Shown here: positions 2,661-44,026 of the stretch, in pieces | Layout: each line of letters starts with the position of its first letter | How positions within the stretch are numbered: position 1 is the stretch's first letter | Origin: a virus | Reading direction: 5' to 3' (one strand) | Virus record (IMG/VR): IMGVR_UViG_3300037466_003019 | Length of the DNA stretch: 44,026 nt | Position numbers and translations under genes: made by a program | Notes under the pieces: model-generated | What the model was told of the DNA's origin: nothing | The model's input: only the letters and a program-made list of their open reading frames with translations | Database searches by the model: none

Positions 2661-2937
2661 AGCTTCGCCTTACCGTTGTTCTTCCCACTTCCACCCTTGC
2701 CTCAGTGGTGGGGCGTAGACCGCGCTGCTGCGCTGGTCTAGCCGCTGCGGCCTCGCCTCGGGGTGTCGGGCTACGTGGCTTTGGCCTGAACCCGAAAGCC
2801 GATGGCCCGGAAGCCTTGCGTGGTGCGGGCTGCGGGCGTGCGGTAGGGGTCGGTGCAGGACAGAATGCGAATGGTTCGCACCACCCCCCTCCGAAAGCAG
2901 GCCGGCCGGCCCCCCGGCGCCTTACCTGTTTGCCCCT

Positions 2938-2966
2938 CGAAAAATGGGAGGCCTCCCGGGTTTTCG
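2938..2966. terminator. Imperfect palindrome, terminator-like (cgaaaaatgggaggcctcccgggttttcg)
   Basis: GGGAGG/CCTCCC core flanked by A-run and T-run. No real loop, so weak. Confidence 0.25.
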
Positions 2967-2993
2967 CCGGAGGGGGCGCGGGGGAGGTGCTGC

Positions 2994-4130
2994 GTGGCTG
3001 AGGTGCCGGCGATTCCGGCGGGGCTGGTGCTGCCGGCGCAGGAGCTGCAGCTGCGGGCGACGATCCTGGCCGAGGGCGGGCCGCTGGCGAGCGCGCTGCG
3101 CGCGGTCGAGGCGCGCGCGTGGCGCGACACGACGTGGCTGCGCACGTGCTGGCTGTGGGTGCAGTGCCTGGTGGTGGTGCGTGGCTTCCGCGGCGCGACG
3201 ACGGTGGCGGACTACGTCGAGGCCGTGGCGCGGTTCGTCGGCTGGGCCGAGGAGAAGGGGCTGGCGTGGCGCGAGCTGAAAACGAGCGACCTGGACGACT
3301 GGCAGCGGTGGCTCTACGTGCGCCGCCGCTTGTCGGCCGCGGCGCGCCGGCAGGCGCTGATGGCCGTGCGCAGCCTGTACAGCTATCTCGACACCCGCGG
3401 CGAAGGCCGCGACGTGACGCGCGGCTATGCGGCGCCCAAGCGCGTGATCAGCCAGGCCAAGAAGTACACGCCGGCGCAGCTGCGCGCGCTGTTCGGCGCC
3501 GTCGACGAGGGTGACACCGAGGAGGTACGCCAGCGCGACCGCGCCATGCTGCTGGTGCTGCTGACGGCCGGCCTGCGGCGCGAGGAGGTTTCCGCGCTGC
3601 GGGTGGACCAGCTGGAGCTGGCCAGCGACCGCAAGGGCCTGGTGCACGTGTTCGGCAAGGGCGCCAAGGAGCGCACCGTGCCGATCGAGGGGCCGGTGGT
3701 GCGCGAGCTGTTGCGCTGGCTGGACATGCGCAGCCGCCTGCCCGAGCTGCACACCGACGCGGTGTTCGTGAACCTGTCGCGCAGCGGCGGCAAGGGCGCG
3801 AGCCTGGGCGTGCGCGCCGTGGAAAACACCGTCACGCGCACGGCGCGCCGCGCCGGCCTGGGCTCCTGGGGCGTGCACCGGTTCCGCGTGACCTTCGCCA
3901 CGATGCTCTACGACGACGGCACCGACATCGAGCGGATCCGCGTGCTGATGGGGCACGAGTCGATCGAGACCACCCGGCGCTACCTCGCGGTGAGCAGCCG
4001 CATGAACCGCCACAGCCTAAAGGCCCACCGGCAGCACGCCGCGCTGGGCACCGCGCCCGACGACCTGCCGTTGTGGGCCCAAGACATCGAGAGGAAGCGC
4101 AATGGATCCGGCATTCTCCCGTCCCGGTGA
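2994..4130 (+). CDS. Tyrosine recombinase (XerC/D-like), second of three
   Basis: Motifs: LLTAGLRREEVSALRV, VFGKGAKERTVPI, HRFRVTFATML, LMGHESIETTRRYL. The GTG at 2994 is preceded by GGAGG at 2983-2987. The longest ORF starts at 2853. Confidence 0.85.
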   Translation: MAEVPAIPAGLVLPAQELQLRATILAEGGPLASALRAVEARAWRDTTWLRTCWLWVQCLVVVRGFRGATTVADYVEAVARFVGWAEEKGLAWRELKTSDLDDWQRWLYVRRRLSAAARRQALMAVRSLYSYLDTRGEGRDVTRGYAAPKRVISQAKKYTPAQLRALFGAVDEGDTEEVRQRDRAMLLVLLTAGLRREEVSALRVDQLELASDRKGLVHVFGKGAKERTVPIEGPVVRELLRWLDMRSRLPELHTDAVFVNLSRSGGKGASLGVRAVENTVTRTARRAGLGSWGVHRFRVTFATMLYDDGTDIERIRVLMGHESIETTRRYLAVSSRMNRHSLKAHRQHAALGTAPDDLPLWAQDIERKRNGSGILPSR

Positions 4131-5545: not shown

Positions 5546-7424
5546 GCGCCTGCCCACCGGCGACCACGACGTGCTGCGGCAGATGGCCGACCGCGGCGTG
5601 TACGCGCCCGACGAGTTCGAAGCCTGGCTCGCAGCGCGTGCGTGGGCGTGGCAGGGCCTGGACCGCGGCGACTACGGCGTCAACCTCGAGCAGGCGCTGT
5701 TCCTGTTCGTGTTCGAAGATCCCGTGCGCTGGTCGGAGACGTTCCTGATCGAACCGCGCACGGGCGACCCGTGGCAATTCTTCGACTACCAGCGCGAGAG
5801 CTGCCGCGCCTGGGCGCAGGACGTGGTGCACCAGGACGGTGCCGAGGTGGGCAAGACGCGCGAGATCACCGTGCTGGTGCTATGGGGCCAGTGCACGTGC
5901 ATGGGCTTTACCGTGCGCCGGCCGTGGATGCTGGTGGGTGCGCCGCAGCAGACCCACCTGGATGAAATCATCCTGGCGATCGAGGAGCAGGTCGGCGCGC
6001 AGGATGGCGGCGAAAAGGCCAGCGGCTCGCTGCTCAGCCAGTTCTGGCTGAAACCGAAGCGCACGCCGCACATGATGCAGCGGTTCCTCACCATCCCGCT
6101 CGGCGAGAACGAAAAGCCCGGCATCGGGCGCGTGTACTACCGCCCGGCCGGCCACGATGGCGAGGCCTTCCGCGGCGTCCACGTGAACGCGATGGCGCTC
6201 ATGGACGAGGCGGCGAAGCTGAAGCGCGCCGTGCAGTGGTCGGAGTTCTGGCGCTCGGCCATGCCGGGGTGCCGCAAGCGCGTGTACAGCGTGCCCGATG
6301 GCGACCGCAGCACGGAGTTTTTCCGCCTCAGCCAGCAGGCCACGCCCAACCTGGCCGCCGCGGCGAAGGGCTGGCGCCTGTTCCACTGGCCCAAGACCAT
6401 CATGCCGGCGCCGTTCTGGAGCCCCGAGCGCGACGCGGAGTTCATCCGCCTGTTCGGTGGCCGGCACACGCCGGGCTACAAGCGCAACGTGCTGGGCGAG
6501 TGGGGCGAGGCAGAGAACCCGGTGTGGAGCTGGGATCTGCTGCTGCCCAACGTCTGCGACCTGCCGGACTACCGCGTGCTGGTGCTCAACGTGGATCGCC
6601 AGCGCGGCGACCTGCACGTGCGCGTCGCCCGCGTGGCGTTCGCGGTGCAGGAGGGCGGCCGCAAGAGCGGGCAGTACGACTGGCTGTTCGATGGCACCGT
6701 GGCGCTGGCGGCCTTCGCCAGCCGCGACAAGGACGAGCGCCGCGCCGCCATGCGCGCCCTGCTGCGCGAGCACATTACCGGCGCCAGCGCGGGCGTGTAC
6801 TGGGCCGGCGCGGACCTGGGCGAAACCAACGACCCCACCGAGATCATCATCAGCGAGCAGCGCGGCCCGAAGGACGAGGACGTGCTGCGCGTGCATGCCC
6901 GCGGCATGGACTACTACATCCAGCGCGAGCTCGTGTACTGCCTGCAGGAGCTGTTCGGCGGCCGCCCGCACTGGGGCGTCGACCTGGGCAGCGCCGGCAC
7001 CGTGGTGGTCAAGGACCTGCAGACGCTGGAGGAGTACGCCGACCAGCGCTTCGACGAGGTGATGACCGGCTTTCAGTTCTCCAACGCCGTGGACTGCATC
7101 GGCGAGGACGGCGAGCCGCTGATCGACCGCGCCCGCGACGACGGCAGCGAGGAAACCATCGTGCGCGCCCCGGCCAAGCACTGGGCCACCCAGTGCATCA
7201 GCCAGCGCCTGCAGGCCTGCGGCTACGCGCTCGCCTACGACATCGACGTGCTCAACCACATGACCAACCACACGGCCCGCCAGGGCACGAAGTGGCCGAT
7301 CTACGCCAAGAAAGACGACCACGACATCGACGCCCGGAGGATGCAGATGCTGCGCAAGTTGTACGACGAGGTGGGCGGCGAGGTGGACGTGTTCAGCTGC
7401 GGCGCGGAGGCGCGGACGGGATGA
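5538..7424 (+). CDS. terL: Terminase large subunit
   Basis: 628 aa. Walker-A-like HQDGAEVGKTRE, followed by a C-terminal nuclease-sized domain. Lies upstream of the portal gene. Confidence 0.8.
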   Translation: MAKRLPTGDHDVLRQMADRGVYAPDEFEAWLAARAWAWQGLDRGDYGVNLEQALFLFVFEDPVRWSETFLIEPRTGDPWQFFDYQRESCRAWAQDVVHQDGAEVGKTREITVLVLWGQCTCMGFTVRRPWMLVGAPQQTHLDEIILAIEEQVGAQDGGEKASGSLLSQFWLKPKRTPHMMQRFLTIPLGENEKPGIGRVYYRPAGHDGEAFRGVHVNAMALMDEAAKLKRAVQWSEFWRSAMPGCRKRVYSVPDGDRSTEFFRLSQQATPNLAAAAKGWRLFHWPKTIMPAPFWSPERDAEFIRLFGGRHTPGYKRNVLGEWGEAENPVWSWDLLLPNVCDLPDYRVLVLNVDRQRGDLHVRVARVAFAVQEGGRKSGQYDWLFDGTVALAAFASRDKDERRAAMRALLREHITGASAGVYWAGADLGETNDPTEIIISEQRGPKDEDVLRVHARGMDYYIQRELVYCLQELFGGRPHWGVDLGSAGTVVVKDLQTLEEYADQRFDEVMTGFQFSNAVDCIGEDGEPLIDRARDDGSEETIVRAPAKHWATQCISQRLQACGYALAYDIDVLNHMTNHTARQGTKWPIYAKKDDHDIDARRMQMLRKLYDEVGGEVDVFSCGAEARTG

Positions 7425-31216: not shown

Positions 31217-31474
31217 ATGGACGAGTCACCCACAAATCCCATCCGCGCCGCCCGACTGAAGCGCCGCCTGTCCCAGCAAGGGCTGGCGGCCAAGGTGAAG
31301 GTCTCCAAGGCGGCCGTCAGCGCGTGGGAATGCGGCAAGGCCGAGCCCGCTCCGCGGACGGCCTTGGCCCTTGTGAAGGTTTTGCCAACGCTGCGGTTCG
31401 AACAGATCTACCCGGTAGTGCCTCCTTCCGACGAGGAGCAGGGCGGCGACCCAGTGCAGAGGGCCGCCGCATGA
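31217..31474 (+). CDS. Cro-like XRE-family HTH protein
   Basis: IRAARLKRRLSQQGLAAKVKVSKAAVSAWECGK. Confidence 0.7.
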   Translation: MDESPTNPIRAARLKRRLSQQGLAAKVKVSKAAVSAWECGKAEPAPRTALALVKVLPTLRFEQIYPVVPPSDEEQGGDPVQRAAA

Positions 31475-32238
31475 ACCTCCTCGGCTACGTGCGCGTGTCC
31501 ACCGAGGAGCAGGCCCGCGAGGGCGTGAGCCTGGGCCAGCAGGTCGAGCGGCTGCGCGCGTATTGCGCGCTGCATGGGCACCAGCTGGTCGGCGCGGTGC
31601 TCGACGAGGGCGTGAGCGCCAGCGTGCCGCTGGCCAAGCGCGAGGGCGGCCGCACACTGCTGGCGCGCCTGAAAGCCGGCGATGCGGAAGGCGTGGTGGT
31701 GGTGCGGCTGGACCGGCTGTTCCGCGACGCGCTGGACGGGCTGATGTTTTTCCGCGGGCCGGCCGAGCGGCTGGGCGTGGCCGTGCACAGCATCAGCGAG
31801 CTGATCGACAGCAGCACGCCGGCCGGGCGCCTGAGCCTGACCATTCAGCTGGCCGCGGCGCAGTACGAGCGCGACCTGGCCGTGCAGCGCGCGACCGAGT
31901 GCAACGCCGCACTGCGGGAGCAGGGCAGGGTGTACGGCCACGTGCCCTACGGGTGCGTGGCGGTGGGGGAGGGCGACGGCCGCCACCTGGCGCGCGACCC
32001 GCAGACCTGGTGCCACCGCGAGGCGGCCGTGCGCCTGCTCGACAAGCACAGCCTTCGCGGCGCCGCCCTCGAACTGGCGGCGCGCGGCATCCCCAGCCCC
32101 ACGGGCAAGCCGCGCTGGTCGCCGAACACGTTGCGCGCGTTGCGCACCCACCACGACTCCCTCCGCAAGCTACCGATGGCTCAGCCTGCCACCGGTGATA
32201 CCGCCTCGCCTGACCCGGAGGTTTCACCCCATGCTTGA
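31471..32238 (+). CDS. Serine recombinase (resolvase domain plus partial large-serine-recombinase 'recombinase' domain)
   Basis: MNLLGYVRVSTEEQAREGVSL supplies the catalytic Ser motif. Also ...VVVVRLDRLFRD..., ...SLTIQLAAAQYERD..., then GIPSPTGKPRWSPNTLRALR. ATGA-coupled to the Cro-like gene. Confidence 0.8.
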   Translation: MNLLGYVRVSTEEQAREGVSLGQQVERLRAYCALHGHQLVGAVLDEGVSASVPLAKREGGRTLLARLKAGDAEGVVVVRLDRLFRDALDGLMFFRGPAERLGVAVHSISELIDSSTPAGRLSLTIQLAAAQYERDLAVQRATECNAALREQGRVYGHVPYGCVAVGEGDGRHLARDPQTWCHREAAVRLLDKHSLRGAALELAARGIPSPTGKPRWSPNTLRALRTHHDSLRKLPMAQPATGDTASPDPEVSPHA

Positions 32239-34309: not shown

Positions 34310-34677
34310 TGCAGTCCCTGAACTCTTGCCGGGGTAACCGGACACAACTCGCCCAAGCCGTGGCCCTGCGCTTCGGCGTTGACCCGAACGCTGCGTATCC
34401 AGTTTCCGCATTTATCGTTCAACTGCTTGAGCAGCAGGGTGACGACGGAGCTAATGGCATCGACCAGGCCATCGCAGGAACGATGGGCCCTGACGATTAC
34501 TACGACCTGCTCGAAGGGTTCCAGATTGGGCACCGCCAGATCCGTACATGGGTGCGGGAAGGCCGCGCCGGCGAACCAGTCGCGCTGACTACGCGGGGGC
34601 GGGAGCTTGCGCGTCGGATCAACGATGAGCTCGTAATTTTCACCGGCGCAGATTCGACGATGGAGGCCACCCCGTGA
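34309..34677 (+). CDS. Hypothetical protein
   Basis: 122 aa, TGATG-coupled, lower GC. Confidence 0.45.
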   Translation: MQSLNSCRGNRTQLAQAVALRFGVDPNAAYPVSAFIVQLLEQQGDDGANGIDQAIAGTMGPDDYYDLLEGFQIGHRQIRTWVREGRAGEPVALTTRGRELARRINDELVIFTGADSTMEATP

Positions 34678-35636
34678 CCTCCAACGTCATCACCATCGCC
34701 GGCCACAGCGTTACGCCCGTTACGCTGACCCAGGCCATCGCGCACTTCCTGCAGCGCAAGCGCCTGCGCAACGCCGCGCTGAACACCTTGGTGGCCTATG
34801 CGGGCGACCTGCAGGACTTCGCCGACTTCGCCGCCACGCAGGGCGTGGAGCTGGTCGGCCTGGTGGGCGAGCGGCTGGTCGGCCGCTGGCTGGACCGGCT
34901 CGGCCACCGCGGCCTGTCGCCGCGCAGCCAGGCACGCAAGCTGACCGTGCTGCGGCAGCTGGTGCTGCACAGCATTCGCGAGGGCTGGCTGAGCCACGAC
35001 CCGACCAAAGATGACCGTGTGCACTTCGTGCAATTGCCGAAGATCGCACCGGAGCTGTCGCCGCTGCTCACCATGTTGGATGCACTGCCCACCCGCACGC
35101 CGCAGGACCTGCGCGACCGCGCCATGCTGCGCCTGACGCTGGATGCAGCCTTGCGCGTGGGCGACCTGACCGGCCTGGACGTGCCAAACCCGGTGCGGCC
35201 GCCCTTCAACACGGTGGACCTCGGCCGCCGTGAGGTTCGCACGCTGGGCAAGGGCCGCAAGCCGGCCGTGGTGCCCATCAACCAGCGCAGCGCCGAATGG
35301 CTGGGCGACTGGCTGCGCGTGCGTGACCGCATGGCCCGCGAGGGCGAGTGCGCGATCTTCGTGAGCAATCGCGGCACGCGCATCACCCGTCAGCAGATCT
35401 ACAACCGCGTGCGCCAGCTGGGCGCGCAGCACGGTCTGCCGGACCTGCACCCGCACCTGCTGCGCCACCGCCGCGTAGGTGACGTGGTGGAGCAGCTGGG
35501 CCTGGAGGCCGGCCAGCACCTGGCGCGCCACAAGAGCAAGTCCACCACCGCCGCCGTGTACGGCGCCCAGGCCGCCGCCGTGGTGCGCCACGTGCTACGC
35601 GAGCGAGCGGACCTGGATGCAAGGAGGGTGGGCTGA
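34674..35636 (+). CDS. Tyrosine recombinase (XerD-like), third of three
   Basis: RDRAMLRLTLDAALRVGDLTGL, TLGKGRKPAVVPI, HPHLLRHRRVGDVV, ARHKSKSTTAAVY. Confidence 0.8.
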   Translation: MTSNVITIAGHSVTPVTLTQAIAHFLQRKRLRNAALNTLVAYAGDLQDFADFAATQGVELVGLVGERLVGRWLDRLGHRGLSPRSQARKLTVLRQLVLHSIREGWLSHDPTKDDRVHFVQLPKIAPELSPLLTMLDALPTRTPQDLRDRAMLRLTLDAALRVGDLTGLDVPNPVRPPFNTVDLGRREVRTLGKGRKPAVVPINQRSAEWLGDWLRVRDRMAREGECAIFVSNRGTRITRQQIYNRVRQLGAQHGLPDLHPHLLRHRRVGDVVEQLGLEAGQHLARHKSKSTTAAVYGAQAAAVVRHVLRERADLDARRVG

Positions 35637-36160
35637 TGGATGTGCTGACCGTTACCGCCGGCGCGGTGCTCTCCGAGTGCGGCCGGTACCGCTACAGCCT
35701 GACGCGCCACGTGGGCGAGCAGGGCCCGCTCTACGGCTTCGTAGGCGTGAACCCCTCGACCGCCGACGCCGAGATCGATGACGCGACCGTGCGCAAGTGG
35801 CGCGGCTTCGTGCAGCGCTGGGGCGGCCGCGGCTTCGTGGTAGCCAACCTGTTCGCCTGGCGCGCCACGGACGTGACCGCACTGGCGTGCCCGCCGGATC
35901 CCGTTGGTACCGGCAACATGGCGGCGCTGGCAGCGATGGTGGACGCCTGCGATGTAATCGTGCCGTGCTGGGGGAGCCGCATGAAGCTGCCCCGGGCGCT
36001 GTGGCCGCAGATCAACCGCGTGCGCGCGCAGCTGCTGGCCAGCGGCAAACCCGTCATGTGCTTCGGGCACGCCAAGAGCGGCGACCCGATGCATCCGCTG
36101 ATGCTGGGCTATGACACGCCGCTGGTGCCGCTGGTGGCGCCGATGGCAGGTGCCGCATGA
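35636..36160 (+). CDS. DUF1643-family protein
   Basis: CGRYRYSLTRHV...FVGVNPSTADAEIDDATVRKWRGF...VVANLFAWRATD...DPVGTGN...VPCWG matches the family pattern. AAGGAGGG RBS. Confidence 0.7.
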   Translation: MDVLTVTAGAVLSECGRYRYSLTRHVGEQGPLYGFVGVNPSTADAEIDDATVRKWRGFVQRWGGRGFVVANLFAWRATDVTALACPPDPVGTGNMAALAAMVDACDVIVPCWGSRMKLPRALWPQINRVRAQLLASGKPVMCFGHAKSGDPMHPLMLGYDTPLVPLVAPMAGAA

Positions 36161-36456
36161 GCGCCGTCATGGATCTGCGCCCGACCGTGGGCAATGACGG
36201 CGCCGGCAAGTTCACCGTCTACATCGGCGCCGGCTACCGCGAGCTGACGCGCGACCAGGCCTTCCGCCTGTTCGTGGAGCTGGGCGAGGCACTGAGCGTG
36301 CCCACGGTGGCCCGGGCGCATTTCTTCGCCTGGGCCGCCAGCCTGCGCCACCTGCCGACCACCGAGCAGGTGATGGAGAAGTTCAACGTGTCCCGCGCCA
36401 CCGCCTGCCGCTGGCTGGTGTTCGAGCGTGCGCAACGCGAAGGGGAAAGCGCATGA
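36157..36456 (+). CDS. Hypothetical DNA-binding-like protein
   Basis: 99 aa. The C-terminal segment EKFNVSRATACRWL is HTH-like. Confidence 0.45.
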   Translation: MSAVMDLRPTVGNDGAGKFTVYIGAGYRELTRDQAFRLFVELGEALSVPTVARAHFFAWAASLRHLPTTEQVMEKFNVSRATACRWLVFERAQREGESA

Positions 36457-36764
36457 AGCAGAAGCAGATCCCGCACCCGCCGGGCACGTTCGCTGCCTGC
36501 GCCGATTGCCGCCGCGAGCCCACCCACTGGGAGGTGCAGGGCCGCACCAGCCGCGAGCCGGTGACGTTCGCACCGGTGCCCACCCGACACCTGCTGGAAT
36601 GCCGGCCACCGTGCAAACGCCGCACGATGTTGCACCTGTCGCTGCCCGCCGCCATTGGCGAGTGGGGCCAGTTGGGCGAGACGCTGCCGCTGCCATTGCC
36701 GTCGCCGGTGGTGAGCAACGTGCGCTCGATCCGCTCCCGGGCGAAGGGGAGGGCGCACGCATGA
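36453..36764 (+). CDS. Hypothetical protein
   Basis: 103-aa ATGA-coupled ORF. Confidence 0.4.
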   Translation: MKQKQIPHPPGTFAACADCRREPTHWEVQGRTSREPVTFAPVPTRHLLECRPPCKRRTMLHLSLPAAIGEWGQLGETLPLPLPSPVVSNVRSIRSRAKGRAHA

Positions 36765-37057
36765 CATCGTCGCGCGCCAACGCCATGACGCCCGCCGCGC
36801 CGCCAGCCATCGGCGCGCTGCCAACCCCGAACGCCAGCGCGGAGGAGGTGCTGGCCAACCTGCAGCGCCTGCTCGCGGCACGCCGCGAGCGCATCGCCAC
36901 GGCCGCGCTGCAGGGGCTGCTGGCGTCCTGCGGGAACGTCCAAACCAACCGGCCCTCGGCCGAGCACCTGGCGGCCCGCTCGGTGCATTACGCCGATGCG
37001 CTGATCGATGCCCTCAACAAGGTGACGAAGGAGGCCGCCCATGCACGCCCTCGCTGA
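36761..37057 (+). CDS. Hypothetical protein
   Basis: 98-aa ATGA-coupled ORF. Confidence 0.4.
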   Translation: MTSSRANAMTPAAPPAIGALPTPNASAEEVLANLQRLLAARRERIATAALQGLLASCGNVQTNRPSAEHLAARSVHYADALIDALNKVTKEAAHARPR

Positions 37058-37271
37058 CGACGTGGTGCCCCTGACGCAAACCAAGGCCGGCCAGAAAGCC
37101 CGCGCCAGCGTGATCGGCCGGGCGGTGCGCGCCGGCGTGAGCCGCGGCTGCTACCGCTGCACCTGCTGCGGCGGGCGCTGCGAGGTGCGCGTGGACTACG
37201 ACGCCAACGGCGAGCCGGCCCGCACCCGCGGCCAGTGCCGCACGCCCAACTGCATCGCGTGGGAGGACTGA
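37041..37271 (+). CDS. Hypothetical Cys-rich protein
   Basis: 76 aa, with CYRCTCCGGRC...CRTPNC. Confidence 0.4.
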   Translation: MHALADDVVPLTQTKAGQKARASVIGRAVRAGVSRGCYRCTCCGGRCEVRVDYDANGEPARTRGQCRTPNCIAWED

Positions 37272-37275
37272 CGCC

Positions 37276-37524
37276 ATGGCCGACCACCTCAGCCCCCAGC
37301 ACGAGGCGATCCTGACCGAGCTGCGCAAAGGCCCGGCCACCACCATGCAGCTGATCAAGCGCTGCGGCGTCATCTGCGTGCAGGCCCGCCTGCACGAGCT
37401 CAAGACCGACCACGGCTACGCCATCGGCATGCAGATGGTGACCGTGCGCGACCGCCGGCGCGCCACCGTGCGCGTCGCCCAGTACAGCCTGCTACCGCAG
37501 CGCGCCCACAAGCGCGCCGCCTGA
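37276..37524 (+). CDS. Winged-helix-like hypothetical protein
   Basis: HEAILTELRKGPATTMQLIKR... Confidence 0.45.
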   Translation: MADHLSPQHEAILTELRKGPATTMQLIKRCGVICVQARLHELKTDHGYAIGMQMVTVRDRRRATVRVAQYSLLPQRAHKRAA

Positions 37525-37542
37525 CCTGAGGAAGCCCCTTCG

Positions 37543-37884
37543 ATGGAACTGAATATCCAGCCAGGGCAAAAGGCCCTGATCACTACCAACGCGTGGTTCT
37601 ACGGGCCGGACGGCCGCCAGTACCACGCCGTGTTTGGCACGGTGAAGGCCATCCGCGCCGACGAGGAAACCCTCGGCATCAAGTCCAACCGCAACAGCAC
37701 CAACTGGTACGTCGAGATCGGCAACATGACGATCGCCGGGTGCCAGGTGCACTACGCCATTCGCTGCGAGACCTGCAATACCGGTGAGACCGAGGCATGG
37801 ACTTCCGATGCTGCGAACGGGGTGCGCGTTTTCCGCCGCCCGAGCTCGATCTACAACGCCGATGCCGACGTGCGGGAGGGCTGA
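37543..37884 (+). CDS. Hypothetical protein
   Basis: 113 aa of non-biased composition. Confidence 0.5.
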   Translation: MELNIQPGQKALITTNAWFYGPDGRQYHAVFGTVKAIRADEETLGIKSNRNSTNWYVEIGNMTIAGCQVHYAIRCETCNTGETEAWTSDAANGVRVFRRPSSIYNADADVREG

Positions 37885-37887
37885 GCC

Positions 37888-38805
37888 ATGTTCTTCCGCA
37901 ACCTCACCCTGATGCGTTTCTCGCCCGCCGTAGCGCAGGACCTGGCGCGCCTCGACGAGGCGCTGGCCGATCACCGGCTGCGCCCCTGCGGCCCGCTGGA
38001 GCTGTTCACCAAGGGCTTCGTGCCGCCGATCGGCCGCGAGGCCGACTCGCCGCTGACGCACGCGGTGCGGAACTTCACCTGGTTCACCGTGGGCGGCGCG
38101 GACAAGCTGCTGCCCGCCGCGGTGGTCAACGACGAGCTGCACCGCCGCGTGCAGAAGATCGCCGAGGAGGAGGGCCGCAAGGTCGGCGGGCGCGAGCGCA
38201 AGCGCATGAAAGAGGACCTGCTGAACGAGTTGCTGCCGCGCGCCTTTGTGCGTGACTCGCGCCTGTCCGGCTACGTCGACACCCGCGAGGGCTGGCTGGT
38301 GCTGGACACCGCCGGCCGCAGGCCCGCGGAGAACGCGCTGACGCAGTTGCGCGAGGCGCTGGGCAGCTTCCCGGCTGTGCCGCTGGCGCCGGAGGAGGGG
38401 CCGCGCGTGCTGCTCACCGACTGGCTGGCCAACGGCACGCTGCCGGCCGGCCTGAGCCTGGGCGACGTGGTGGAGTTGCGCGACCCGGGCAGCACCACTG
38501 GCGCCATCGCCCGCTGCCGCCGGCAGGACCTGGAGAGCGAGGAGATCAAGGAGCACCTGCGCAATGGCAAGCAGGTGTTCCAGCTCGGCCTGGTGTTCGA
38601 CGACCGCCTGAGCTTCGTGCTGGGCGAAGACCTGGTGGTGCGCCACCTGAAGTTGCTGGACGTGGTGTTGGACGAGCTGGCCGACAGCGCGCCCGATGCC
38701 GCCGCCGAACTGGATGCCCGGTTCGCGCTGTTCACCCTGGAGGTGGAGCGCCTGCTCGGCCGCATGGCCGAGTGGTTTGCCCTGCCGCGCCCGAAAGACG
38801 CTTGA
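37888..38805 (+). CDS. rdgC: Recombination-associated protein RdgC
   Basis: The MFFRNLTLMRF N-terminus and the ~305-aa length are typical of RdgC. Confidence 0.8.
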   Translation: MFFRNLTLMRFSPAVAQDLARLDEALADHRLRPCGPLELFTKGFVPPIGREADSPLTHAVRNFTWFTVGGADKLLPAAVVNDELHRRVQKIAEEEGRKVGGRERKRMKEDLLNELLPRAFVRDSRLSGYVDTREGWLVLDTAGRRPAENALTQLREALGSFPAVPLAPEEGPRVLLTDWLANGTLPAGLSLGDVVELRDPGSTTGAIARCRRQDLESEEIKEHLRNGKQVFQLGLVFDDRLSFVLGEDLVVRHLKLLDVVLDELADSAPDAAAELDARFALFTLEVERLLGRMAEWFALPRPKDA

Positions 38806-38858
38806 CCCTGACCCGCCCCTTGAACGCCGCACCCGCGGCCAACCGGAAAGGAATACCC

Positions 38859-39383
38859 ATGCAACAGCCCAACATCCATATCGACCGCATGACCGTCCAC
38901 GTGCACGGCCCTGAGCCCGAAAGCAGCGGGCTGCTGGTCGCGCCGCTGATCCAGGCGGTCTTCGGAGACGTCAAAAAGGCCTCGGGCAAGAGCGAGGCCG
39001 AACGCTTCGAGCTGCGCCCGGACGGCACCACGGTCGACCATAAGACCGGCCTGCAGTGGGCCACCGAGGAAAGCCCCAAGCAGCTGAATTTCGAGGAGGC
39101 CGAGAAGCACTGCGCCGCGCTGCGTCTCGGCGGCTTCGACGACTGGCGCCTGCCCGACCTGGAGGAGCTGGAGTCCATCCGCGACCTCGGCCGCCACAAC
39201 CCCTGCATCGATCCGAAGTTCTTCAAGAGCAACGCCAACTGGGTGTGGTCGCGCACGCCCACGGCGTGGTCTTCGGGCTGCGCGTGGGTCGTCTACTTCT
39301 ACTACGGCAACGTGAACTACGACGACCGGTACGGCAGGGCGTTCGTCCGGGCTGTGCGTCGCGTGTCGCCGGCCGGTCAGTGA
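38859..39383 (+). CDS. DGR target protein 1 (DUF1566 / C-type-lectin-fold)
   Basis: DHKTGLQWATEE...EAEKHCAALRLGGFDDWRLPDLEELESI...WVWSRTPTAWSSGCAW-VVYFYYGNVNYDDRYG-RAFVRAVRRV. AAAGGA RBS. The longest ORF starts at 38772. Confidence 0.9.
   Translation: MQQPNIHIDRMTVHVHGPEPESSGLLVAPLIQAVFGDVKKASGKSEAERFELRPDGTTVDHKTGLQWATEESPKQLNFEEAEKHCAALRLGGFDDWRLPDLEELESIRDLGRHNPCIDPKFFKSNANWVWSRTPTAWSSGCAWVVYFYYGNVNYDDRYGRAFVRAVRRVSPAGQ
39263..39377 (+). repeat. DGR variable repeat VR1
   Basis: 115 nt aligned to the TR, with 10 mismatches, all at TR adenines. The variable window is 39288-39336. Confidence 0.95.
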
Positions 39384-39425
39384 TTGGCCTTTTGGCCCAT
39401 CCCTCCATTCACAAGGAAACGCTCC

Positions 39426-39854
39426 ATGGAAACCATGATCAAGATCGGTGCGCAGGGCGAGCAGCTGCCGGCCGAGGCCACCCAGTGGGACGCCGTGCTG
39501 CTGCCGCAGCTCGGCCTGATGTTCAGCGCCACCGACACGGGCGAGGGGGAACTGACCTTCAAGCAGGCCGAGGCGGCCTGCGCCAGCCTCACGCTCGCCA
39601 GCTTCAGCGATTGGCGGATGCCGGAACGGCAGGAGCTGGAGGCGATTCTGGACCTGACTCGCTACGAGCCGGCCATCGACCCGGCGTTCTTCCGCGACAC
39701 CAAGAGCGACTGGTACTGGACCCGCACGCCTACGGCGTGGTCTTCGGGCTGCGCGTGGATCGTCAGCTTCGACGACGGCGGCGTGGGCAACGGCACCCGG
39801 AACCTCAGGGCGTTCGTCCGGGCTGTGCGTCGCGTGTCGCCGGCCGGTCAGTGA
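39426..39854 (+). CDS. DGR target protein 2 (DUF1566 / C-type-lectin-fold)
   Basis: METMIKIG...ASFSDWRMPERQELEAIL...WYWTRTPTAWSSGCAW-IVSFDDGGVGNGTRNL-RAFVRAVRRV. AAGGA lies 8 nt upstream. Confidence 0.9.
   Translation: METMIKIGAQGEQLPAEATQWDAVLLPQLGLMFSATDTGEGELTFKQAEAACASLTLASFSDWRMPERQELEAILDLTRYEPAIDPAFFRDTKSDWYWTRTPTAWSSGCAWIVSFDDGGVGNGTRNLRAFVRAVRRVSPAGQ
39734..39848 (+). repeat. DGR variable repeat VR2
   Basis: 12 mismatches to the TR, all at TR adenines. Confidence 0.95.
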
Positions 39855-39896
39855 TTGGCCTTTTGGCCCATCCCTCCATTCACAAGGAAACGCTCC

Positions 39897-40325
39897 ATGG
39901 AAACCATGATCAAGATCGGTGCGCAGGGCGAGCAGCTGCCGGCCGAGGCCACCCAGTGGGACGCCGTGCTGCTGCCGCAGCTCGGCCTGATGTTCAGCGC
40001 CACCGACACGGGCGAGGGGGAACTGACCTTCAAGCAGGCCGAGGCGGCCTGCGCCAGCCTCACGCTCGCCAGCTTCAGCGATTGGCGGATGCCGGAACGG
40101 CAGGAGCTGGAGGCGATTCTGGACCTGACTCGCTACGAGCCGGCCATCGACCCGGCGTTCTTCCGCGACACCAAGAGCGACTGGTACTGGACCCGCACGC
40201 CTACGGCGTGGTCTTCGGGCTGCGCGTGGTTCGTCGGCTTCCTCGACGGCTACGTGGGCAACAACGCCCGACACGGCAGGGCGTTCGTCCGGGCTGTGCG
40301 TCGCGTGTCGCCGGCCGGTCAGTGA
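39897..40325 (+). CDS. DGR target protein 3 (duplicate of target 2 apart from the VR)
   Basis: Identical to target 2 except for the VR residues FVGFLDGYVGNNARHG. Confidence 0.9.
   Translation: METMIKIGAQGEQLPAEATQWDAVLLPQLGLMFSATDTGEGELTFKQAEAACASLTLASFSDWRMPERQELEAILDLTRYEPAIDPAFFRDTKSDWYWTRTPTAWSSGCAWFVGFLDGYVGNNARHGRAFVRAVRRVSPAGQ
40205..40319 (+). repeat. DGR variable repeat VR3
   Basis: 15 mismatches to the TR. 14 are at TR adenines. The other is a synonymous G->A (cgg->cga) at 40271. Confidence 0.95.
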
Positions 40326-40351
40326 TCGGCTTCTCGGCCTGAGCTAACACC

Positions 40352-40786
40352 ATGACCTTCACCCTCCCACCCGCCGTGCGCCTGGCCGAAGGCTTGGCTC
40401 GGGACATCGAGCAGGCCGTCGCGCGGTTCCAGCGCGCCTACCGCTATACGTTCGGCGCGGATCTTCGCGCCCGGGCGTGGGCGGTGTTGCGCACCGCCCA
40501 CCGGGCGGCGCGCGACCAGGCGCGCCGGGGCCATTGGCTGACGCAACTGGTGTGGGAGGTGGACGAGCTCAAGTTGAGCCTGCAGTTGGGCAAGCAGTTG
40601 CACGCCTTCGTCAGCTTCGCGCAGTTCGAGGCGCTGGCGCGGGCGGCCGCGCAGCTGGGCCGCCAGGTGGGCGGCTGGCACAAGCAGCAACACCCTCAAG
40701 GCCAGAGTGGTCCGGCGCGAGCGCCGGGCCAGCGTGCCATGACACTGAGTTCCCGTGCCGCCTCGAACCGTGAGGCCAATCGATGA
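40352..40786 (+). CDS. avd: DGR accessory variability determinant (Avd, four-helix-bundle type)
   Basis: 144 aa, helical and Arg/Ala-rich (...AVARFQRAYRYTFGADLRARAW...ELKLSLQLGKQLHAF...FEALARAAAQLGRQVGGW), in the canonical position between VR and TR. Confidence 0.8.
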   Translation: MTFTLPPAVRLAEGLARDIEQAVARFQRAYRYTFGADLRARAWAVLRTAHRAARDQARRGHWLTQLVWEVDELKLSLQLGKQLHAFVSFAQFEALARAAAQLGRQVGGWHKQQHPQGQSGPARAPGQRAMTLSSRAASNREANR

Positions 40787-42141
40787 CGACGCCGCGCTAC
40801 TCCACCATGGAATGCGCGGCCGGGTCGCAAGTGCACGGGCGGGCGTGGTCTTCGGGCTGCGCGTGGATCGTCAACTTCAACAACGGCAACGTGAACAACA
40901 ACAACCGGAACAACAGGGCGTTCGTCCGGGCTGTGCGTCGCGTGTCGCCGGCCGGTGAGTGTCGGGGTGAGGTGAGCCTGCGGGCGCTATACGAAGCATG
41001 GCGCGCCGCTCGCCGCAAGAAGCAACCCAGTGCCAACCAGCTAGCGTTCGAGCTGCGCTCGATCGACCGCCTGCTGGACCTGCAGGAACAACTCAACGCC
41101 GGCCGCTGGTCGCCGGCCCCCACCACGTGCTTCGTGGCCACGCGGCCCAAGGCGCGCGAGATCCATGCGCCGGACTTTGCCGACCGTGTGGTGCACCACT
41201 GGCTGGTGCCGCAGCTGGAGGCGATCTACGAGCCTGGTTTCATCCACGACAGCTACGCCAACCGCAAGGGCAAGGGCACGCACGCGGCGGTACGCCGCCT
41301 GCAACAGTTCGTGCGCCAGGTGCACAGCGGACAGGGCGGCGGCTGGTACCTGCAGCTGGACGTGCACAACTTCTTCAACTCGATCCACCGCGCGACGCTG
41401 TACGGCATGCTCAAGGCGCGTCTGTCCCGCGCCGGCTTGGGTGAAGTGCCGATGCGGGCCGTGCACGCGCTGCTGCGCCACCCGGTGCAACAACAAGGCG
41501 TCATCCACCGCGCCACGCCGGCAGAGCGGGCACTGGTGCCGCCGCACAAACGGCTGGAGAACGCACCGCCCGGGTGCGGCTTGCCGATCGGCAATCTGTC
41601 GTCGCAGTTCTTCGCCAACGTGTACCTGGATGCGCTGGACCAGTTCGTCAAGCACACGCTCAAGGCCAAGCGCTACCTACGCTACGTGGACGACTTCGTG
41701 CTGGTGCACCGCGACCGGGGCCAGCTCGAGCAATGGCACGCGGCGATCGAACGCTTCCTCGGGCAGACGCTTCGGCTCGGCCTGAAGGCCGACCAGCGCC
41801 TGCGCCCGCTGTCCGCCGGCATCGACTTCCTGGGCTACGTGGTCTACCCCACGCACACCCGCGTGCGGCCGCGCGTGCTGCGCCACGCGACGGACAGCCT
41901 GCAGCGCTGGCAGCGGGCGCACCGCGCGGGCGGCGGCTACAGGGGCACGCCGGAGGACTTCCAGCGCCTCGATTCCATCTGGGCCAGCTACCAGGGCCAC
42001 TTCGCGCACGCGAACAGCTGGCGCCTGCAGCAGCGCCTGCTGCGGCGGCGCCCCTGGCTCGCCGCGCTCGCCAACCCACGGCGCCGCTTCCATCACCGCC
42101 TGAGCGGGCGGCGCCTCACTGTGAGGGTTTCACATCCATGA
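40783..42141 (+). CDS. DGR reverse transcriptase (ORF as tracked; the functional start may be GTG 40972, downstream of the TR)
   Basis: LPIGNLSSQFFANVYLD is the DGR-type motif and RYLRYVDDFVLVH carries YxDD at 41683-41694. The N-terminal core LRALYEAWRAARRKK...PKAREIHAPDFADRVVHHWL is also present. ATG 40783 overlaps the avd stop (ATGA), but the first ~60 codons are simply the TR read in frame. Confidence 0.92.
   Translation: MTTPRYSTMECAAGSQVHGRAWSSGCAWIVNFNNGNVNNNNRNNRAFVRAVRRVSPAGECRGEVSLRALYEAWRAARRKKQPSANQLAFELRSIDRLLDLQEQLNAGRWSPAPTTCFVATRPKAREIHAPDFADRVVHHWLVPQLEAIYEPGFIHDSYANRKGKGTHAAVRRLQQFVRQVHSGQGGGWYLQLDVHNFFNSIHRATLYGMLKARLSRAGLGEVPMRAVHALLRHPVQQQGVIHRATPAERALVPPHKRLENAPPGCGLPIGNLSSQFFANVYLDALDQFVKHTLKAKRYLRYVDDFVLVHRDRGQLEQWHAAIERFLGQTLRLGLKADQRLRPLSAGIDFLGYVVYPTHTRVRPRVLRHATDSLQRWQRAHRAGGGYRGTPEDFQRLDSIWASYQGHFAHANSWRLQQRLLRRRPWLAALANPRRRFHHRLSGRRLTVRVSHP
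40842..40956 (+). repeat. DGR template repeat (TR)
   Basis: 115 nt. The A-free flanks (25 nt at the 5' end, 41 nt at the 3' end) are identical to all three VRs. The central window 40867-40915 holds 22 adenines: 10 AAC codons plus one ATC and one AGG in the VR reading frame. Homology continues with one mismatch to about 40961. Confidence 0.95.
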
Positions 42142-43043
42142 GCCAATACACACCGGAACAGGTTGACCTGCGCAATCTCATCTACGCCGACCTGCAGTTC
42201 GAGCATCGCGGCGAAACCGATCTCAAATGGGAAGAGATTCAGGCCTTGGTGGAGCGTGGCTGGATGCACGAAGGTCAGAATAACGACGAGTTCGACCTCA
42301 CCGACGAGGGCCGAACCGTTCTCGCAGATGCCCTCTCCCAGCTGCAGCAGGGAGAGCAGCGGGCGGTGATTGATGGCAAGTACGACAACGTGCTGGTGCC
42401 GTTCGCTCGCCTGATGGCGAAGGAGCTGCACGCCAACGCTGGCAAGGGTGATCGCCCAGGGTGGCTGAGCATGACGCCGGCCACCGGCATGCTGGAAATC
42501 TACTACCACACGGCCAAGCTGCAGAAGGCGGTGAAGGGCGGCAACTGCGACGGGATCCGCGAGTTCGCCGCCGACGTGGCGAACATGGCGATGATGCTGC
42601 TGGACGCGTGCGGCGGCTTGGCCGTGGACGAGCGGATGGACCGGGCGGGCTCGTTCCAAGAACGCGTGTCTGAGTGGATGGAGCAGTGCTTCTTGCCATC
42701 CCTCTACAGCAACATGACCGAGCGCGGTGATCGCCTCCTCGAGGAGGTGCTGGAGCTACTGCAATCCAAGGGCTATGACCGCACCCGGGTCGCCACGCTG
42801 GTCGACTACGTGTGGGGTCGCCCGGTGGGCGAGCCGGCGCAGGAAGTGGGCGGCGTTATGGTGACGCTGGCCGGGTTCTGCTGGATCGCCGGCCTGGACA
42901 TGCACGCCGCGGGCGACGCCGAGCTGGCACGCATTAACGCGCCCGAGGTGATGGAGAAGATCCGGCGCAAGCAGGAGGCCAAGAACGCGCTGCACTTCGA
43001 CACGCCGCTGCCAGGGCAGGTCAAGGTGCTGGGGGCGGCATGA
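42138..43043 (+). CDS. MazG-like nucleotide pyrophosphohydrolase-domain protein (tentative), ATGA-coupled to the RT
   Basis: 302 aa. Helical segments LMAKELHANAGKGDRPGW...IREFAADVANMAMMLLD and ERGDRLLEEVLELLQSKGYD...EVGGVMVTLAGF resemble all-alpha NTP-PPase motifs. Confidence 0.4.
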   Translation: MSQYTPEQVDLRNLIYADLQFEHRGETDLKWEEIQALVERGWMHEGQNNDEFDLTDEGRTVLADALSQLQQGEQRAVIDGKYDNVLVPFARLMAKELHANAGKGDRPGWLSMTPATGMLEIYYHTAKLQKAVKGGNCDGIREFAADVANMAMMLLDACGGLAVDERMDRAGSFQERVSEWMEQCFLPSLYSNMTERGDRLLEEVLELLQSKGYDRTRVATLVDYVWGRPVGEPAQEVGGVMVTLAGFCWIAGLDMHAAGDAELARINAPEVMEKIRRKQEAKNALHFDTPLPGQVKVLGAA

Positions 43044-43054
43044 AGCACGAACCG

Positions 43055-43279
43055 CTACGCGTCGATGAAGTCGCGCGCCAGCGTGTGACCCGCGGTCACT
43101 GTCCCTTCGAGCGTGGTGAACCGGCGACCCTCTTTGTCGCGGATCTTCGGCAGGCCTTCGATGTCGATGGCATCGATCCAGTAGCAGCCCGTGCCCTCGT
43201 AGATCGTGAGGATGTAGGCCTTACCTTTGTAGACGCCATCGCGCAGGTAAATCGGCGCCTTGCTTCGTGTCCCGCTCAT
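43055..43279 (-). CDS. Small hypothetical protein
   Basis: MSGTRSKAPIYLRDGVYKGKAYILTIYEGTGCYWIDAIDIEG... has normal composition, with a GAGGGA RBS. Preferred over the antisense + ORF 43040-43312. Confidence 0.5.
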   Translation of the reverse strand: MSGTRSKAPIYLRDGVYKGKAYILTIYEGTGCYWIDAIDIEGLPKIRDKEGRRFTTLEGTVTAGHTLARDFIDA

Positions 43280-43308
43280 GCGTCCCTCGCTTTGCTGCGG
43301 AGTCCCCA

Positions 43309-43557
43309 ATGATGGTTGAGCATAGCGTTGATCTCGAAGCTGGTGCGCACGTAACGCTGGATGGCGCTCAGGCCGTCTACGCCATCGTGGCTCGGCGCCT
43401 AGACGCCACCACGCCTTCGGGCGTGACCTTCCGGTTGCTACCGGATGCCGGCGGCTGGGTAGACGCCGGCCGGGTGACCTACGCCGCGGGCTTCGTCGAA
43501 CGGCAGAGGTTCGACCCCGAGGAGGAACTGGACCCCGACGCCGAGTGGGAGTGGTAA
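43309..43557 (+). CDS. Hypothetical protein
   Basis: 82 aa, with GGAG 8 nt upstream. Confidence 0.45.
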   Translation: MMVEHSVDLEAGAHVTLDGAQAVYAIVARRLDATTPSGVTFRLLPDAGGWVDAGRVTYAAGFVERQRFDPEEELDPDAEWEW

Positions 43558-43560
43558 CCG

Positions 43561-43878
43561 ATGCGCACGTGCCCACGCTGCCAGCAGACCACCGCCAGCA
43601 CCTGGTGCTGCGGCCTGGACCTGACCGCCCGCAAGCGCTGGCGGATGACGCGTGATCGCGTGCGCCTGATCCACGTGCTGGCGCTGGCGCGCAAGGGACT
43701 CACCGACGAGCAATACCGGCTGCGCCTGGGCGCGGTGGGCGTCGATTCCAGCCTGAAGTTGTCGCGGGACCAGTTCCACGCGCTACTGCGCGGGCTTCGC
43801 GCGCTTCCGGACTCGCCCAGCTGGCTGAGTGGCGCCCGCCATGCCCGCCGGCGCGGGCGCATCGCGAGGGCGGGCTGA
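43561..43878 (+). CDS. GemA/Mu gp16-like (DUF1018-like) regulatory protein
   Basis: RVRLIHVLALARKGLTDEQYRLRLGAVGVDSSLKLSRDQFHALLRGLRAL. Confidence 0.55.
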   Translation: MRTCPRCQQTTASTWCCGLDLTARKRWRMTRDRVRLIHVLALARKGLTDEQYRLRLGAVGVDSSLKLSRDQFHALLRGLRALPDSPSWLSGARHARRRGRIARAG

Positions 43879-44026
43879 GCCATGGCGCGGATGCTTCGCT
43901 ATGGCCGCCCGCAGGTGCTCAATGTCGGCACCCAGGTAGCACGCCGTGCTCTCCAGCGCACTGTGCCCGAGCATCTGCATGATGGCGGGCAGGGGACAGC
44001 CGTGGTGGAGCAGGGTGGTGGCCATG
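43783..44026 (-). CDS. int: Tyrosine integrase, C-terminal part (continuation of the 1-953 fragment; 43901-44026 duplicates 1-126)
   Basis: HLLRASMATTLLHHGCPLPAIMQMLGHSALESTACYLG gives H-x-x-R, H and the catalytic Y. The stop is at 43783. Confidence 0.85.
   Translation of the reverse strand, partial: MATTLLHHGCPLPAIMQMLGHSALESTACYLGADIEHLRAAIAKHPRHGSARPRDAPAPAGMAGATQPAGRVRKRAKPAQ
43901..44026. repeat. Terminal direct repeat, copy 2 (identical to 1-126)
   Basis: Same 126 nt as the window start. Confidence 0.97.

Follow-up and report, generated by a model that had tools for sequence, protein, structure and literature searches.

Can a single template feed three separately diversified genes in a phage genome of 44 kb, and how would such an array have come about? 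The question is raised by positions 38859 to 42141 of the IMG/VR virus record IMGVR_UViG_3300037466_003019, a stretch of 44,026 nucleotides (hereafter the window), where a first-pass annotation had recognized a diversity-generating retroelement (DGR) in which one template repeat (TR) serves three variable repeats (VRs), together with an Avd-like protein and a reverse transcriptase (RT). Our analysis upholds this call, as mismatches restricted almost entirely to adenines, an Avd protein, a DGR-type RT and lectin-fold targets were all found. From its sequence, we estimate at about 90% the probability that the cassette is a DGR of the common target(s)-avd-TR-RT layout that is working or was working very recently. 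We also found that the third target appears to be a recent tandem duplicate of the second, that multiple targets are the norm among the related cassettes, and that the TR lies inside the reading frame of the RT.

Adenine-specific differences between the template and three gene ends

Re-alignment reproduced the ungapped match of the 115-nt TR to the 3' ends of three consecutive genes (Table 1), with the 10, 12 and 15 mismatches that had been counted in VR1, VR2 and VR3, respectively. Our recount also agrees that 36 of these 37 mismatches fall on TR adenines, instead of being spread over all four bases. Adenine makes up 19% of the TR (22 A, 39 G, 34 C and 20 T), and the probability that at least 36 of 37 mismatches would fall on it is 4e-25. 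Over the three VRs pooled, the substitutions at TR adenines comprise 22 A>G, 9 A>T and 5 A>C. On the two sides of the variable core, the A-free blocks of 25 and 41 nt are identical in all four copies, as previously reported. The 3' block of 41 nt occurs exactly four times in the window, where we could not find any further copy of the repeat beyond the TR and the three VRs. The homology between TR and VRs extends 5 nt beyond the 3' end first assigned to it, and this extension includes a fixed difference, G40957 in the TR against a C in each VR, where the context of the stop codon is CAG TGA.

Read in frame, the adenines of the TR belong to 10 AAC codons, one ATC and one AGG. Because NNC, NTC and NGG never form a stop codon, none can arise in the VRs. 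The potential diversity of each VR amounts to 15^10 x 4 x 3 = 6.9e12 peptides, or 4^22 = 1.8e13 DNA variants, so that both the arithmetic and the codon count behind the earlier figure of ~7x10^12 peptides were correct.

Much as coding sequence would, the TR reads as an open, in-frame stretch, and one may therefore ask if the repeats are ordinary ends of paralogous genes under gene conversion, the supposed TR being the decayed fragment of a fourth gene. Yet neither conversion nor drift would confine 36 of 37 differences to the adenines of a single copy. Moreover, in all of the ~90 related cassettes described below the TR is flanked by an Avd gene and a DGR-type RT, and it stays constant while the VRs vary. 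The mismatch spectrum effectively refutes this explanation, to which we assign a negligible probability.

An intact cassette with lectin-fold targets

The accessory variability determinant (Avd) is a protein of 144 residues that matches PHROG 3206, 'Avd protein of DGR' (E 1e-15), as well as NCBIfam DivGenRetAVD (E 7e-9) and Pfam bAvd (E 6.6e-8), which bears out the resemblance noted initially. The open reading frame (ORF) of the RT codes for 452 residues with matches to Pfam RVT_1 (E 4.6e-15) and PHROG 1423 (E 1.5e-98), and contains both of the motifs for which it had been considered DGR-type, PIGNLSSQFFAN (IGNLSSQFFAN) at 41587-41619 and YVDD at 41683-41694. Its best sequence match in the PDB is 8ub7_A (E 4e-38), group II intron RTs being matched at 2e-15, and an NCBIfam scan of the RT gave only sub-threshold group II and retron matches. 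The entry 8ub7_A has 328 residues and is labelled in the PDB merely as 'Reverse transcriptase'. We take it to be the RT of Bordetella phage (bRT), on account of its length of 328 residues and of the existence of a cryo-EM study of the bRT-Avd complex. No accession starting with '8UB' was found in the text of that study (10.1101/2023.10.23.563531).

All three target genes code for small proteins in which a Pfam Lcl_C (DUF1566) domain spans the VR (E 1e-22 to 3e-26). In target 1, residues 56-167 correspond to an Lcl_C/DUF1566 domain with C-type-lectin fold, preceded by 55 residues modelled with low confidence, whereas target 2 consists of little besides this domain. The AlphaFold2 model of target 1 has an overall pLDDT (the per-residue confidence score) of 80, and above 88 over residues 50-170. 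Its best match in the PDB is the C-terminal domain of Legionella Lcl (8q4e), then C-type-lectin-like domains, and among viral models it is closest to those of phage DUF1566 proteins. Searched by sequence against the PDB, target 1 had nothing but chance matches to antibody chains. According to this model and to the domain matches, the VRs are predicted to close the C-termini of C-type-lectin-fold targets, as they do in DGRs, whose targets have this fold or an Ig fold.

Several observations weigh against a DGR that is working or was so very recently. The matches of Avd to the NCBIfam and Pfam profiles both score under the curated cut-offs, and a PDB sequence search with Avd returned no match. 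One of the 37 mismatches is not on an adenine (TR G40908 -> A in VR3). Of a GC-rich inverted repeat of the BPP-1 type, we could find after the VRs only a 4-bp GGCC hairpin. Furthermore, variation in the VRs was judged from assembled sequences, and the same VR alleles are present on two or three assembled contigs, with no sign of turnover between assemblies. Finally, the evidence for the tandem duplicate discussed in the next section comes from metagenome assemblies, where a second contig is broken within the repeat.

The recovery of identical VR alleles from at least two samples or contigs would be in line with an inactive relic, in which the adenine-biased differences are left over from earlier activity and the three VRs have since become fixed. 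We regard this as unlikely, since all components are intact and in a single orientation, the RT retains YVDD and the SQ motif, and the constant blocks of the TR and of all three VRs are still 100% identical. In addition, the copies of the duplicated gene carry no substitution outside the VR core, yet their cores differ at 12 adenine sites. We therefore retain a DGR with present or very recent activity as the best reading of the cassette.

Recent tandem duplication of gene 2 gave rise to the third target

Genes 2 and 3 lie in two tandem units of 471 bp, each comprising a post-VR spacer, a gene body and the whole of the next VR. With a shift of 471 bp, the sequence matches itself perfectly over 39335-39758. 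Between the VRs the two genes are identical at 381 of 381 nt, and the constant blocks of their VRs are identical too, so that the three targets represent two gene types, not three. All of the 13 differences between genes 2 and 3 are confined to the 49-nt VR core, and 12 are at TR adenines (probabilities of 3e-14 and 7e-5, respectively). No other pair of paralogous targets among the compared cassettes is 100% identical, the remaining ones reaching at most 87%.

The spacer that follows VR1 is the same as the one that follows VR2, while the spacer after VR3 is different. The breakpoints of the duplication therefore fall within the VRs, as one would expect if it had occurred by unequal recombination between VR1 and the ancestral VR2. 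Sequence comparison rejects a VR2 that would be a simple chimera, with its 5' part from VR3 and its 3' part from VR1; at least one homing event would thus have followed the duplication. The closest syntenic relative, a locus in a Frateuria metagenome-assembled genome (MAG; locus L058), has two targets only, in the arrangement RdgC-T1-T2-Avd-RT. This indicates that the third target is a very recent duplicate that has diversified since. As judged from these sequences, two targets appear to be the ancestral state of this lineage, from which the third arose by duplication of gene 2.

The third target might also be an artefact of assembly, two coexisting VR alleles of gene 2 having been laid out in tandem. 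The source is indeed metagenomic, the copies show 100% identity except in the VR core, the closest syntenic relative carries just two targets, and the second contig (43,259 bp) both starts and ends within the repeat, which at least one assembler therefore failed to resolve. Yet the core of VR2 is followed by a spacer of the VR1 type, a junction that should be present in the reads, the proteins of targets 2 and 3 are each recorded on two contigs, and relatives often have such genes in tandem arrays of two to four (for example, loci L018 and L005). We consider an artefact rather improbable and, even if it were true, coexisting alleles that differ only at adenine sites would still indicate DGR activity. 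A genuine duplication, later rewritten in the VR core, is the interpretation that we follow below.

Multiple targets are the norm among related cassettes

RT-guided searches provided 57 viral and 39 genome loci, for a total of 97 loci examined with the window. The genome loci belong mostly to Frateuria, Rhodanobacter, Dyella, Lysobacter, Luteimonas, Pseudoxanthomonas and other Gammaproteobacteria. By using a self-comparison script, we identified adenine-biased TR/VR pairs in 90 of the 97 loci, including the window, most of them in prophages of the Xanthomonadales type. When the VRs lying within 6-kb flanks are counted, 12 cassettes have one VR, 64 have two, 13 have three and a single one has four; hence, at least two VRs are present in 78 of the 90 cassettes, and three or four in 14. 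The mismatches pooled over the 90 cassettes are 2267 on A and 212 elsewhere, and 165 of these 212 correspond to one conserved difference, a G in the TR and a C in the VR, located 4-5 nt from the 3' end.

Compared with the syntenic Frateuria locus, the window shows identities of 93% for RdgC, 73% for T1, 84% for T2, 78% for Avd and 90% for the RT. The TR is essentially identical between the two, and the VRs of the Frateuria locus differ at many adenine sites.

The first-pass annotation had described three targets fed by one TR as uncommon. This holds for general surveys of DGRs, where multiple targets are a minority state (PMC5758913, PMC3521204) and about 1 in 7 elements has several VRs (Schillinger et al. 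2012, PMC3521204). It does not hold for this RT clade, in which several targets are the norm, and the third target of the window is itself a duplicate. Cassettes with three, four or eight targets have already been described (PMC5758913, PMC3521204), and DUF1566 targets are a recognized category, half of which are short proteins (PMC5758913). A multi-target DGR with DUF1566 targets is nothing new in kind.

The template repeat lies inside the RT reading frame

The ATG at 40783 overlaps the stop codon of avd (ATGA) and opens an in-frame ORF that runs through the TR into the RT, whose homologous part starts at about 40969, 12 nt after the TR. On the inclusion of the TR in the RT ORF the first-pass annotation was silent. 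The ATGA overlap is present in 73 of 80 distinct cassettes, and 67 of the 80 also have an unbroken frame into the RT. A Shine-Dalgarno (SD)-like motif precedes the ATG in 65 of 69 loci, with a spacer of 7 nt in 59 of the 69. The linker between the TR and the RT has 15 distinct lengths, one phase being kept in 62 of 69 loci, while in six loci the TR is read in another frame and the frame of the RT is regained afterwards. Many cassettes, including the syntenic Frateuria locus, lack any ATG, GTG or TTG in the stretch from the TR to the conserved N-terminus of the RT. In the leader, G+C content at third codon positions reaches 0.75, compared with 0.62-0.63 for the two alternative frames, and the third codon position is the most variable, as in coding sequence. 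Both available gene calls include the TR in the RT, namely that of JGI (452 aa) and that of NCBI for the Frateuria MAG (436 aa). The continuous frame is absent from the distant cassettes (RT identity 51-67%; L085-L088, L093 and L095).

Together, the ATGA overlap, the SD-like motif, the frame-preserving indels and the compensating frameshifts suggest that the overlap is maintained by selection, and make translation through the TR plausible in this clade. Two features qualify it: a possible internal GTG start at 40972 in the window itself, and a covarying RNA hairpin which is also carried by the leader and by which its conservation would be partly at the RNA level. To the proposal that the TR of this clade is a translated part of the RT gene, with one RNA acting as both mRNA and template of mutagenic reverse transcription, we would give an even chance. 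If it is true, ribosomes that initiate at the ATG overlapping the end of avd would have to pass through the TR in order to produce the RT, the synthesis of Avd and that of the RT would be coupled, and translation and cDNA synthesis would be forced into competition or coupling in cis. Its confirmation would contradict the usual assumption that the TR is untranslated, as stated by Wu et al. (PMC5758913), and would make testable how one RNA can be both message and template.

Candidate recognition elements of the clade

In the window, each VR runs into a short motif that is absent after the TR, GTCAGTGATTGGCCTTTTGGCC following VR1 and VR2 and the variant GTCAGTGATCGGCTTCTCGGCC following VR3, that is three matches against 0 expected. 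A consensus of about 20 nt, GTCAGT[AG]ATTGGCCTTTTGG, holds over 156 distinct VR ends in the clade and is absent after the TRs. It includes the stop codon and shows a weak signal of direct repetition within itself, offset by 8 nt (0.423 versus 0.343 in controls). The 3' ends of VR and TR are thus asymmetric in a way that is conserved in the clade, with the shared GC-rich block of 41 nt, the fixed TR-G/VR-C difference, and then the 20-nt motif found in VRs only. Such an asymmetry would correspond to that between the initiation of mutagenic homing (IMH) sequence and its TR counterpart IMH*, by which the direction of transfer is set in DGRs, and we propose that the VR-only motif may be part of target-site recognition, as an IMH-like mark. 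A cruciform or terminator after the VRs was also considered and rejected, as these regions fold no better than shuffled sequences (z 0.08 to 0.27). A GC-rich inverted repeat downstream of the VR is found in only about a third of DGRs.

Upstream of the TR, at a distance of 22 nt, lies an RNA stem-loop with a 7-bp stem (GCCGCGC/GCGCGGC) and a 16-nt loop. Its arms (40791-40797 and 40814-40820) are paired in 97.4% of cells according to RNAalifold on 53 sequences, compensatory changes are seen in 4 of 5 tested pairs, and none of 500 shuffles reached the observed covariation. Shifting the partner by one to three columns abolishes the pairing. Judging from the segment that BPP-1 requires in this region (10.1101/2023.10.23.563531), the stem-loop is probably part of the upstream element in the DGR RNA. 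A small hairpin at the 3' end of avd (GCCTC-N7-GAGGC) has as its 3' arm the SD-like GAGG located 7 nt upstream of the ATG at 40783; its support is weak, with 84.5% of cells paired over the 53 sequences and 2 of 5 pairs changing on both sides. RNAalifold provided no convincing long-range pairing of the two flanks of the TR with each other, for which no dedicated test was made, and a search of Rfam over 36000-44026 returned nothing relevant. The VR-only 3' motif and the covarying upstream hairpin therefore stand as candidate recognition elements drawn from the clade.

A temperate phage with its DGR outside the tail module

The two ends of the window are an exact repeat of 126 bp (1-126 = 43901-44026). 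A second JGI contig, Ga0395899_0000507 (43,259 bp), is 100% identical and circularly permuted, and breaks in the gene 2/gene 3 repeat. The overlapping ends and this permuted contig imply that the genome is a circle of 43,900 bp. The carrier is a circular 43.9-kb temperate siphovirus-like phage, and its host is probably a member of the Rhodanobacteraceae or of other Xanthomonadales. The genome also has four recombinase genes (three tyrosine and one serine) in 43.9 kb, which is above the normal need of a temperate phage.

Exact-protein look-up retrieved one circularly permuted identical contig with Avd, bearing the same VR3, nothing with T1, and only one 1.3-kb contig with RdgC. An exact-pattern scan of metagenome and viral contig collections with a 39-nt constant block of the VR gave no matches. 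A near-identity DNA search of the cassette against GenBank phages found nothing, and the first 25 kb have a single 1-kb match to them at 80% identity, which indicates that this is not a described phage. That match joins window positions 5547-6578 to a hypothetical protein gene of 'Microcystis phage MACPNOA1' (KY697807). It is an odd one, the G+C content of the window being ~66% to 72% and the relatives being xanthomonad prophages.

The DGR travels with the recombination/early module of the phage and is separate from the tail module. About 12 kb, in which the endolysin and regulatory genes are found, separate it from the end of the last tail gene at 26921. A tail-fibre or receptor-binding target within the tail module, as in the BPP-1 type, is not what we found here, as the targets sit between rdgC and avd. 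No tail-fibre domain was found in the targets, whose domain content is DUF1566 only, and neither by position nor by domain content are they tail-fibre genes. Given the distance of ~12 kb from the tail genes, a role in the switching of tail-fibre tropism cannot be assumed. No signal peptide or lipobox is visible by reading the target sequences. Our best guess is that the targets bind a ligand or receptor, possibly on the virion.

Genes similar to rdgC also lie directly or a short way upstream of the DGR targets in L008, L051, L058, L060, L063, L041, L042 and L084. On the other side of the cassette, the gene at 42138-43043 (301 aa) overlaps the stop codon of the RT as ATGA and belongs to PHROG 14118. 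We considered it as a DGR accessory and rejected it, as it is absent from this position in most relatives, including the syntenic Frateuria locus.

Table 1. Coordinates of the DGR cassette and of other features of the window
Feature	Position	Strand	Remarks
Target gene 1	38859..39383	+	174 aa; Pfam PF07603 Lcl_C, E 2.9e-26
VR1	39263-39377	+	3' end of gene 1; all mismatches at TR adenines
VR-only motif	39376..39397	+	GTCAGTGATTGGCCTTTTGGCC; includes stop codon; same motif at 39847-39868
First 471-bp tandem unit	39378-39848	+	post-VR spacer and gene body, through the next VR
Target gene 2	39426..39854	+	142 aa; Pfam Lcl_C, E 3.6e-23
VR2	39734-39848	+	3' end of gene 2; all mismatches at TR adenines
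Second 471-bp tandem unit	39849-40319	+	post-VR spacer and gene body, through the next VR
Target gene 3	39897..40325	+	142 aa; tandem duplicate of gene 2
VR3	40205-40319	+	3' end of gene 3; 14 mismatches at TR adenines
VR-only motif, variant	40318-40339	+	GTCAGTGATCGGCTTCTCGGCC; after VR3
avd	40352..40786	+	PHROG 3206
Small hairpin	40760..40776	+	3' end of avd
RT ORF	40783..42141	+	452 aa
RNA stem-loop	40791..40820	+	upstream of TR
TR	40842-40956	+	115 nt; within the ORF that continues into the RT
Tyrosine recombinase/integrase homologue	2853-4130
Portal gene	8200
Tape-measure gene	17010
J-like tail gene (tail protein J)	21439
Endolysin	28444
Serine recombinase, resolvase family	31324-32238
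CII-like regulator	32460
Tyrosine recombinase/integrase homologue	34674-35636
rdgC-like gene	37888-38805		directly or closely upstream of targets
Tyrosine integrase	43783-44026 joined to about 127-953	minus	356 aa; across the junction

A proposed course of diversification

By extension from the Bordetella phage system, the complex of RT and Avd would bind an RNA reaching from the end of avd across the TR into the first part of the RT gene. The RT would then copy the TR into cDNA with misincorporation opposite adenines, of which the A-only spectrum would be the footprint. This cDNA would replace the 3' end of genes having the GC-rich constant blocks and the VR-only motif GTCAGT[AG]AT[TC]GGC..., features that all three VRs carry. 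As an outcome, up to 12 codons may be recoded on the predicted ligand-binding face of three small proteins with C-type-lectin fold (DUF1566/Lcl_C). Unequal recombination between VRs would have duplicated gene 2, after which at least one of the copies would have been rewritten by the DGR.

A duplication that has not diverged outside the VR represents a clean natural experiment, in that it points to the element having acted afterwards. It also suggests that target arrays may grow by recombination between the VRs themselves. Finally, the ~90 cassettes provide a well-sampled clade whose TR is embedded in the RT frame, behind what looks like a translationally coupled start.

Comparison with known systems

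The DGR of phage BPP-1 (mtd-avd-TR-brt) has the same order of target, avd, TR and RT. It differs by its single target, the tail-fibre protein Mtd coded in the tail module, whereas the window has three small DUF1566-only proteins next to rdgC. Moreover, a spacer of ~140 nt separates the TR from brt in BPP-1 (10.1101/2023.10.23.563531), whereas here the homology to the RT begins 12 nt after the TR and the TR is inside the RT ORF. Also in contrast to BPP-1, no GC-rich cruciform follows the VRs.

The targets belong to the same domain family as those of the Legionella pneumophila DGR and, more generally, to the 'category d' CLec2 targets (DUF1566, DUF823, Fib_succ_major; Wu et al. 2018), about half of which are short proteins with DUF1566 only, like the ones described here (PMC5758913). 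The Legionella target LdtA is a surface lipoprotein coded on an integrative conjugative element, whereas the present targets are phage-encoded and have no visible lipobox.

The catalogued multi-target DGRs likewise have one TR that serves several tandem paralogous targets. One of them is from Stenotrophomonas, a xanthomonad like many of the relatives found here, which does not imply that its RT is a member of the same clade. That Stenotrophomonas sp. cassette has eight tandem targets, and a three-target example is given in Fig. 4B of the same work (Wu et al. 2018, PMC5758913), while cassettes with two to four VRs were described earlier (Schillinger et al. 2012, PMC3521204). Gene duplication has been proposed as the origin of such arrays (PMC5758913, PMC3521204). 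Unlike in the catalogued cases, the duplicates of the window have zero divergence outside the VR, and their junctions lie inside the VRs. Since their cores nonetheless differ, DGR activity can be dated to after the duplication.

As for the position of the TR, structural group 3 of DiGReF (Schillinger et al. 2012) gathers elements in which the TR is inside the annotated coding sequence of the RT, which is the same arrangement as in the window. That group was defined from annotation only, whereas the cassettes compared here offer comparative evidence that the overlap may have been kept by selection.

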